Of a stretch of 64,000 nucleotides of DNA, positions 23,776 to 24,465 are shown in pieces (position 1 is the first letter of the stretch; each line of letters starts with the position of its first letter). The stretch comes from a virus (lineage: Duplodnaviria; Caudoviricetes): the IMG/VR virus record IMGVR_UViG_3300035208_001807, positions 32,001-96,000 of that record; one strand, given 5' to 3'. The notes below the pieces were generated by a model. It was not told the origin of the DNA. It worked only from the letters and a program-made list of their open reading frames with translations, and ran no database searches. Made by a program: the position numbers and the translations under genes.

Positions 23776-23807
23776 GGAGAGATGGCCGAGTGGTTTAAGG
23801 CGGCGGT
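23776..23807 (+). pseudogene. 5' half of disrupted tRNA-Ser
   Basis: GGAGAGATGGCCGAGTGGTTTAAGGCGGCGGT; acceptor pairs with TCTCTCC-GCCA at 24455-24465. Confidence 0.85.
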
Positions 23808-23812
23808 AGGGC

Positions 23813-23841
23813 TTTACTTTTACTATAAACCATGCTATGAT
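23813..23841 (+). promoter_or_regulatory. Sigma70-like promoter
   Basis: TTTACT-N17-TATGAT. Confidence 0.65.
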
Positions 23842-23858
23842 ATCTATAGAGGTATCAT

Positions 23859-24320
23859 ATGCGAATACCAAATACTACTTGTTTAGGCTGTAGTAAATCA
23901 CTCTATCAGAGACCAAGCCAGAAAGCCTTAGGAAGGAATGTCTATTGTGATTTATGCTTTCCTACTATAGGAATGTCTCTACGCGGTGAGAGAGCTGCAG
24001 TTGCTCGTAACAGAATCTACGCAACTGCTTATATAGATAGATGGAAAGCTGGTAAAGAATCTGGGATGCGAGGTCAGACCGCAATTTCAGCGTATATTCG
24101 TAAGTATCTATTTGCTAAGTATGATAATAAGTGTTGTCGATGTAGCTGGAAAGAGAAGAATAAGACAACTGGTAAAATTCCTTTAGAGGTCAATCATAAA
24201 GATGGCAACCATAGGAATAACAAAGAAGGCAACCTTGAACTCTTGTGTCCTAATTGCCATAGTTTAACTAGTAGTTTTAGATCTCTTAATAAGGGATCTG
24301 GAAGGCCAAGAAAGTTCTAA
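23859..24320 (+). CDS. HNH endonuclease
   Basis: CCRC ... EVNHKDGNHRNN ... NLELLCPNCH. Confidence 0.9.
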   Translation: MRIPNTTCLGCSKSLYQRPSQKALGRNVYCDLCFPTIGMSLRGERAAVARNRIYATAYIDRWKAGKESGMRGQTAISAYIRKYLFAKYDNKCCRCSWKEKNKTTGKIPLEVNHKDGNHRNNKEGNLELLCPNCHSLTSSFRSLNKGSGRPRKF

Positions 24321-24323
24321 CTC

Positions 24324-24413
24324 GGAAGGGTGGCAGAGTGGCCTAATGCACCTGACTTGAAATCAGGAGGGCCCGTAAGGGCTCCGTGGGTTCAAATCCC
24401 ACTCCTTCCTCCA
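24324..24413 (+). tRNA. tRNA-Ser (TGA), replacement copy
   Basis: CCTGA-CT-TGA-AA-TCAGG, long variable arm, CCA. Confidence 0.9.
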
Positions 24414-24465
24414 AACCGTTGATCCCGCGAGGGGTCCGGGGGTTCGAATCCCTCTCTCTCCGCCA
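24414..24465 (+). pseudogene. 3' half of disrupted tRNA-Ser
   Basis: ACCGT, long variable arm, GGGGGTTCGAATCCCTC, TCTCTCC-GCCA. Confidence 0.85.

Follow-up and report, generated by a model that had tools for sequence, protein, structure and literature searches.

A 64,000-nucleotide stretch of an uncultured phage genome (bases 32001–96000 of IMG/VR virus record IMGVR_UViG_3300035208_001807, which is 149,407 bp long and 68% complete according to CheckV; hereafter the window) contains a tRNA-Ser gene, predicted to have carried the anticodon UGA, whose anticodon loop is interrupted by an HNH nuclease gene together with a second, intact tRNA-Ser(UGA) gene. The two halves of the broken gene were read at either end of positions 23776–24465 (23776–23807 and 24414–24465), and the 606 bp inserted between them contain a promoter-like site, an open reading frame (ORF) for a 153-aa HNH nuclease and the intact tRNA gene. 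Judging from the sequence, we consider it likely that this Ser cassette is a free-standing homing-type HNH gene with a linked replacement tRNA, in which the damage to the resident gene is offset by a spare gene and not by splicing.

The 5′ half of the broken gene (23776–23807, on the plus strand, as are all genes and gene parts of the cassette) comprises the acceptor strand GGAGAGA, the D arm and the anticodon-stem strand GCGGT; the 3′ half (24414–24465) comprises the last loop base A, the strand ACCGT, a long variable arm, the T arm, the strand TCTCTCC, G73 and CCA. Taken together, the halves provide a fully paired acceptor stem (7/7, GGAGAGA/TCTCTCC), a 3-bp D stem with a GG-containing loop, a 5-bp anticodon stem, the long variable arm, the T arm, G73 and CCA, and ARAGORN in intron mode reports 23776–24465 as a single tRNA with a 600-nt insert. 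An intact tRNA-Ser(UGA) from another, unrelated phage (locus L083) matches the 5′ half at 32/32 positions over the first 32 nt and has the anticodon arm GCGGT CTTGAAA ACCGT. When its 7-nt loop is placed between the halves, they fold as a clean 90-nt tRNA-Ser(tga) cloverleaf. Exact matches to a 27-nt word from the 5′ half occur in only 3 of 2.9 million viral contigs, and each match lies in a genuine tRNA-Ser gene, which together with the 32/32 match to L083 argues that the halves are not chance resemblances; a word from the outer 3′ half has no other copy in viral or metagenome contigs.

By this comparison the broken gene, too, is predicted to have had the anticodon UGA. Because the L083 loop restores a flawless tRNA-Ser(tga), only loop bases 32 to 36 or 37 appear to have been removed. 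The first-pass annotation had proposed that both anticodon-stem strands are kept (GCGGT at 23803–23807, ACCGT at 24415–24419) and that most of the loop is gone; the intact L083 arm and the refolded halves bear this out, and its coordinates are all correct. Joined as they stand, the halves yield no Ser anticodon, since 5–6 loop bases including the anticodon are missing. By its sequence the outer gene is therefore dead, and no simple excision can restore it. The outer halves show no visible decay, with every stem still paired, which points either to a recent event or to maintenance of the halves. One other tRNA-Ser is found in the whole record (GCU anticodon, outside the window), and it has the same acceptor stem GGAGAGA/TCTCTCC, G73 and ACCGT strand as the outer gene, which identifies the latter as the resident. 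The outer arm is of a common cellular type, as its 17-mer (GCGGT-CTTGAAA-ACCGT) is present in at least 120 bacterial species.

The replacement gene (24324–24413) is called Ser/tga by ARAGORN and scores 58.6 bits with the Rfam tRNA model (gathering score 29). It has the acceptor stem GGAAGGG/TCCTTCC, the arm CCTGA CTTGAAA TCAGG, a 6-bp variable stem, U73 and an encoded CCA, and no other intact tRNA-Ser(UGA) is present in the 149-kb record. Its CCA end lies against the old 3′ half, as had been noted before, with one A (24414) between CCA and ACCGT. Inner and outer tRNA share 69% identity over 84 comparable positions and differ in the acceptor stem, the D stem, all five anticodon-stem pairs, the variable arm, the T stem and position 73 (U versus G). 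The inner tRNA is 73–77% identical to tRNA-Ser(UGA) of other phages (L005, L024 and the exons of L027), and its lineage is also present at L003, where the linked gene has the same acceptor stem GGAAGGG. The nuclease ORF has a guanine-plus-cytosine (GC) content of 38.5%, compared with 49.2 ± 3.3% for the window, which places it among the lowest 0.08% of 460-nt stretches. The low GC content and the affiliation of the inner tRNA with an other-phage lineage together argue that the insert is foreign.

That the replacement differs in acceptor stem, variable arm and discriminator had been regarded as what would be expected of an allele resistant to its own nuclease. These differences are real, but they mark the lineage of the tRNA and not resistance: U73 and the GGAAGGG acceptor are found in ∼12 of 41 distinct phage tRNA-Ser genes sampled, most of which are not beside a nuclease, and U73 and the acceptor positions lie at least 30 bp away from the loop. 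On this sampling U73 is best described as a lineage trait, and plausibly only the anticodon-stem differences are relevant to resistance. The identity set of E. coli tRNA-Ser consists of the long variable arm, G1:C72, G2:C71, A3:U70, C11:G24 and G73. All of these are present in the inner tRNA except G73, and the U73 found in its place is probably tolerated, given its occurrence in ∼12 of 41 phage genes. Among 17 tRNA-Ser(UGA) arms sampled, 14 close the loop with GT…AC, and GA…TC is found in the inner tRNA only. The stem CCTGA/TCAGG (24350–24366 in the window) also occurs in the HNH-linked tRNA-Thr(UGU) of two related cassettes (L004, 3447–3521; L074, 3384–3457), so that their 17-nt Thr arms are one base from the inner Ser arm. 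As a mark of nuclease-linked tRNAs this stem is suggestive only (3/48 linked versus 6/432 other tRNAs).

The nuclease ORF (23859–24320, including the stop codon) is the sole ORF within the insert and is separated from the inner tRNA by three bases (24321–24323); ORF and inner tRNA occupy all of the insert except 54 nt. The protein has an N-terminal CxxC…CxxC zinc ribbon, a helical linker (YIxRWKxGxExGMRG), a C-terminal HNH core and a GxGRPR(K) tail, and matches PHROG HNH families with E values of 1.8e-14 and 1.6e-13. Invariant in an alignment of 25 homologues are the zinc ligands Cys-92, Cys-95, Cys-130 and Cys-133, the predicted catalytic residues His-113, Asn-125 and His-134, the YIxRWKxGxExGMRG linker and the GxGRPR tail. 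An AlphaFold 2 model (predicted local distance difference test score 89.9) contains strands 110–113 and 126–129 and a helix 131–134. Foldseek returned McrA, Cap5, the Cas9 HNH domain and T4 EndoVII as top matches, all of them weak (E ≥ 0.03), and a sequence search of the PDB with the single protein or a profile gave nothing significant. Motifs and predicted fold assign the protein to the HNH (ββα-Me) superfamily, and its active site looks intact. Public gene calls begin the protein at Met-39 (115 aa, P0001), by which the conserved N-terminal zinc ribbon is lost (window 23859–23975). We prefer the start at 23859, because the N-terminal CxxC…CxxC is conserved in the closest homologues.

Rfam searches identified no group I or other ribozyme in any cassette between 22500 and 42500 (E ≤ 1). 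The left end of the insert (23808–23858) consists of 51 AT-rich bases (GC 31%) with a σ70-like promoter motif: TTTACT (23813–23818), a 17-nt spacer, TG (23833–23834) and TATGAT (23836–23841), followed by a Shine-Dalgarno-like AGAGG (23848–23852) and the ATG at 23859. The site matches the consensus at 9/12 positions and has the extended −10 TG; four such sites are found in the region, compared with 1.5 ± 1.0 in shuffled sequences. Of the insert contents proposed in the first-pass annotation (promoter, HNH and tRNA-Ser), the nuclease and the tRNA-Ser(UGA) hold up, and the promoter is a consensus match only. Similar promoter-like motifs can be read in front of the HNH ORFs of the Trp and Met cassettes described below and of L027 and L003. 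With no ribozyme match, its own promoter-like site and a putative ribosome-binding site, the nuclease gene appears to be free-standing, that is, outside an intron or intein.

Four further cassettes with paired tRNA halves are located in the window: Trp (31808/32352), Asn (33161/33731), Gln (33896/34613) and CAT (38860/39471). Within this genome, the HNH subfamily of the Ser cassette is restricted to the Ser and Gln cassettes, and the Trp, Asn and Met cassettes contain another HNH subfamily. In other phages we find the same subfamily as the Ser nuclease in an arrangement of split and spare tRNA at L074 (Thr), at L024 and L007/L095 (with a tRNA-Ala inside) and at L123/L125 (Thr). There are two gene orders, promoter-HNH-tRNA (the Ser cassette and L074) and promoter-tRNA-HNH (the Gln cassette, L024, L007 and L123).

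Several other tRNA-like elements were observed in the window and at other loci. A short tRNA(CAT) at 14673–14740 of the window is immediately followed by an orphan tRNA 3′ half that extends to 14783 (T arm GGTGG TTCGAAT CTACC, then CCCTGCA, A and CCA), with no nuclease ORF nearby and no matching 5′ half within 2.5 kb; the orphan half may be the remnant of an older replacement. The element at 40213–40301 has an acceptor stem paired at 6/7 positions and a CCA end. A sixth small HNH ORF (40316–40606) abuts a 90-nt tRNA (40606–40695) with an 8-nt anticodon loop, which ARAGORN reads as ‘taga’, and a weak tRNA-like element at 40900–40979 scores 33.9 bits with Rfam. At L032–L034 (∼6032–6227), tRNA halves (ACGGTCG … CGGCCGT G CCA) are only ∼120 nt apart in the anticodon loop, which is too short for either an ORF or a typical group I intron. 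A tRNA with a CUA anticodon (amber-suppressor type, ARAGORN ‘Pyl’) recurs in phage tRNA arrays, at positions 121181–121254 of the record (outside the window) and at L083, L013 and L059.

Relatives of the nuclease were surveyed at 80 viral and 80 metagenome loci, 131 of them distinct overall. Nearly all lie within phage tRNA arrays, and an ARAGORN tRNA starts no more than 100 nt downstream of the nuclease stop codon at 52/80 viral and 77/131 distinct loci, with many specificities represented. The closest relative (L003, 55% identity over the full length) consists of a promoter-like site, the HNH gene and a tRNA-Ser(UGA)-like gene; this unit is free-standing after a tRNA-Phe and has no broken halves around it. 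At L004 (48% identity), the nuclease gene is flanked by two tRNA-Thr(UGU) genes that differ from each other. ORFs in the tRNA regions of T5-like and Herelleviridae phages (for example, Klebsiella phage AmPh_EK80 and Enterococcus phage iF6) belong to the same HNH family (42–46% identity) and are found beside tRNA-Thr. In phage iF6 (L090, MT909815.1, 41124–41501) the ORF is unannotated, 46% identical, antisense in the tRNA array and 13 nt from tRNA-Thr. Rfam searches of 20 homologue loci returned only tRNAs at the gathering score. We also considered whether family members are flanked by intact tRNAs of the same anticodon more often than by chance and rejected this (2/60 versus 8/512 neighbouring array pairs, p = 0.28). 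A strict half-finder gave three hits on real flanks and three on mismatched controls; split cases outside this genome were therefore counted only where the sequence had been read directly.

One relative is carried by an intron in the same tRNA. At L027 (IMGVR_UViG_3300028883_000032, 2808–3564, on the same contig as L119), a 667-nt insert interrupts a tRNA-Ser(UGA) with U73, and in the 5′ part of this insert an HNH gene (53% identity over residues 59–151) lies behind a TTGATT/TATATT promoter-like site. Downstream of the ORF we locate a group I intron core (RF00028, 49.2 bits, E 2.8e-11; gathering score 50). The U(−1)/ωG rule for tRNA introns, as given in a preprint on such introns (bioRxiv 10.1101/2020.01.27.920355), would place the insertion at CTT^GAAA; tRNA-Ser was not found among the intron-bearing tRNAs in the text consulted. 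The L027 exon arm is TCGGT CTTGAAA ACCGA, and it has CGGTCTTGAAAACCG (15 nt) in common with the outer gene of the Ser cassette, whereas the inner tRNA reads CCTGA CTTGAAA TCAGG. The sequence GGTCTTGAAAACC is absent from the L003 and L027 records, and no intact copy is left in the genome studied here. These comparisons are the strongest, though indirect, evidence that the subfamily may recognize tRNA-Ser(UGA) genes by their anticodon arm, and that a different stem may let the linked tRNA escape.

In the mechanism we propose, a compact mobile unit from a lower-GC phage lineage would have entered the resident tRNA-Ser(UGA) at its anticodon loop, inactivating the gene. In tRNA-Ser(UGA) genes with the common arm CGGT-CTTGAAA-ACCG, the HNH protein would nick or cut the DNA in the anticodon loop or close to it, and the linked tRNA would escape cutting because its anticodon stem (CCTGA/TCAGG) is different. 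Repair of the cut would copy the nuclease and linked tRNA into the victim, whose translation capacity would be kept by the spare gene. As neither junction of the insert shows homology beyond 1–2 A residues, the founding insertion must have been illegitimate (non-homologous). Later on, the intact halves could act as exon-like short homology arms for homing into uninterrupted alleles, which would render the unit independent of its genome context. Transcription probably yields the HNH mRNA and the tRNA as one RNA, which RNase P would cut 3 nt past the stop codon; the short distance between stop codon and tRNA makes both co-transcription and RNase P release likely.

More tentatively, the cassette might be described as a ‘spliceless intron’: the HNH lineage that is carried by a group I intron at L027 would here hold the same tRNA site by means of a spare tRNA instead of a ribozyme, and the undecayed halves would be kept as portable homology arms for homing into any phage, or possibly bacterial, genome with an arm of the GCGGT-CTTGAAA-ACCGT type, whatever the neighbouring genes. 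We consider this extension less likely than not.

A number of observations weigh against the proposed nuclease-plus-spare element. Apart from two cassettes in the window, all but ∼6 of the 131 distinct family loci lack flanking broken halves; since most family members do without them, only a minority is in the split state, which may be a repair accident. The tRNA linked to the nuclease at L003 retains the common GT…AC loop-closing pairs, which makes the proposed immunity determinant inconsistent across the family. Position 73 of tRNA-Ser is usually G, and with U there instead, charging of the replacement is not assured. The nuclease scores 18.8 bits with Pfam HNH (cut-off 21.4) and is also under the cut-off of HNH_3. 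Finally, no syntenic kin of the phage that might reveal a presence/absence polymorphism at the locus were found in IMG/VR, and the only uninterrupted gene with a nearly identical 5′ part is that of the unrelated phage L083. The flanking 213-aa and 340-aa proteins have no relatives in IMG/VR. Directly upstream of the cassette (22960–23775) are genes for a NADAR-domain protein (Pfam E 4e-20) with a Cys-rich C-terminal tail and for a 69-aa CxxC…CxxC protein; the 5′ half of the broken tRNA begins 1 nt past the stop codon of the 69-aa ORF. The NADAR protein has four distant relatives in IMG/VR, none of them syntenic.

An ordinary free-standing module of tRNA arrays could have been caught at a random break in tRNA-Ser, with the matching anticodon reflecting later selection and not targeting. 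Such an accidental landing would fit with both junctions being non-homologous and with most family members residing between unrelated intact tRNAs, same-anticodon flanks not being enriched (2/60 versus 8/512). It would not readily explain why a single genome has five tRNA genes with a break in the anticodon arm, each accompanied by a replacement of the same type, why the pattern is repeated in other phages, or why a relative is intron-borne at exactly this tRNA-Ser(UGA) arm, and we consider it unlikely. Alternatively, the tRNA itself could be the adaptive part: with its altered stem and U73 it might resist a host defence that targets tRNAs or suit the synthetase of another host, the nuclease being a mere vehicle or in decay. 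Phage tRNAs are known as counter-defences, which SegB is reported to amplify (PMC13096335, PMC11464382), and none of the 16 other tRNA-Ser(UGA) arms sampled has an anticodon stem like that of the inner tRNA. However, no sequence link connects the change to a defence, the same stem is present in ordinary tRNA-Thr genes, and the HNH active site is by all appearances fully intact, so that we find an adaptive tRNA swap rather improbable.

Restoration of the outer tRNA by loss of the 606-nt insert at the RNA level, whether through self-splicing or through tRNA-processing enzymes and a ligase, is suggested by the relative that uses a group I intron and by the acceptance of the locus in ARAGORN's intron mode. 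Yet the region 22500–42500 contains no ribozyme match at E ≤ 1, ORF and tRNA leave only 54 nt of the insert free, and with 5–6 loop bases including the anticodon gone the joined halves would have no Ser anticodon, all of which makes restoration by splicing very improbable. Nor do we give any real credence to an assembly chimera or to an integrase-type island that would have left a duplicated att site within the tRNA gene. The record is a metagenome assembly and tRNA genes are classic integration sites, but one contig alone shows the architecture five times and independent assemblies show it again; neither an integrase nor direct repeats are present, and the halves are complementary and non-overlapping rather than duplicates.

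HNH nickases of the tRNA region of phage T5 (F-Tfl) are known. The T5-like and Herelleviridae ORFs of the present family differ from the Ser cassette in that no broken tRNA was noted with them, and they are unannotated or labelled hypothetical. The nearest studied system is SegB of phage T4, which, in phages without SegB, cleaves within a tRNA gene (tRNA-Asn of T2L) and drives the inheritance of its own tRNA region (PMC2330249); SegE, SegF, SegG and mobE are further free-standing homing endonucleases of such ‘intronless homing’ (PMC2330249, PMC2790892, PMC2988022). SegB resembles the present nuclease in that its gene lies between the genes of a phage tRNA cluster, without an intron, and in that linked tRNA alleles travel along. 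Unlike the HNH protein described here, it is a GIY-YIG enzyme that recognizes a T-psi-C motif and replaces a region by way of flanking homology, leaving no broken gene. In the Ser cassette, a small HNH gene lies inside the anticodon loop of the victim gene, both halves of which are left, and is accompanied by a whole spare tRNA of the same anticodon.

Group I introns in anticodon loops of bacterial and phage tRNA genes, including the classical Leu.3Ug site, share the place of insertion, and some of them contain homing endonuclease genes (bioRxiv 10.1101/2020.01.27.920355); the L027 relative is such an intron. The Ser cassette differs from them in that it has no ribozyme, function being kept by a second gene and the interrupted gene being lost. 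A further likeness is found in mitochondria, where mobile endonuclease ORFs bring along a foreign gene end, as in Allomyces atp6 and in the ‘gene hybrids’ of Glomus atp6, atp9, cox2 and nad3 (PMC3630166). There, too, the inserted endonuclease carries a divergent foreign copy of the displaced sequence, and the native remnant is left unused downstream. These elements concern protein genes and LAGLIDADG or GIY-YIG enzymes, and only the 3′ end is replaced, in frame, to give a hybrid gene, whereas in the Ser cassette an RNA gene is replaced as a whole and both native halves are left. Full-text literature searches returned no description of a nuclease with a whole replacement tRNA inside a broken tRNA gene. 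Its sequence suggests that the locus is a variant of homing-endonuclease elements.

The cassette and the L027 intron provide a side-by-side pair for studying how such elements evolve, one spare-borne and the other intron-borne, in the same tRNA and with nucleases of the same family. To our knowledge, homing endonucleases are thought to survive in essential genes only by means of self-splicing introns or inteins, or else by sitting between genes. The Ser cassette would represent a third solution for an RNA gene, which is to break the gene and to bring a copy that is presumed to be resistant. If this is true, such elements would account for some of the rapid turnover and mosaicism seen in phage tRNA arrays, point to small (∼150 aa) nucleases that may read tRNA-gene sequences, and constitute a natural nuclease-plus-rescue gene drive in viruses.

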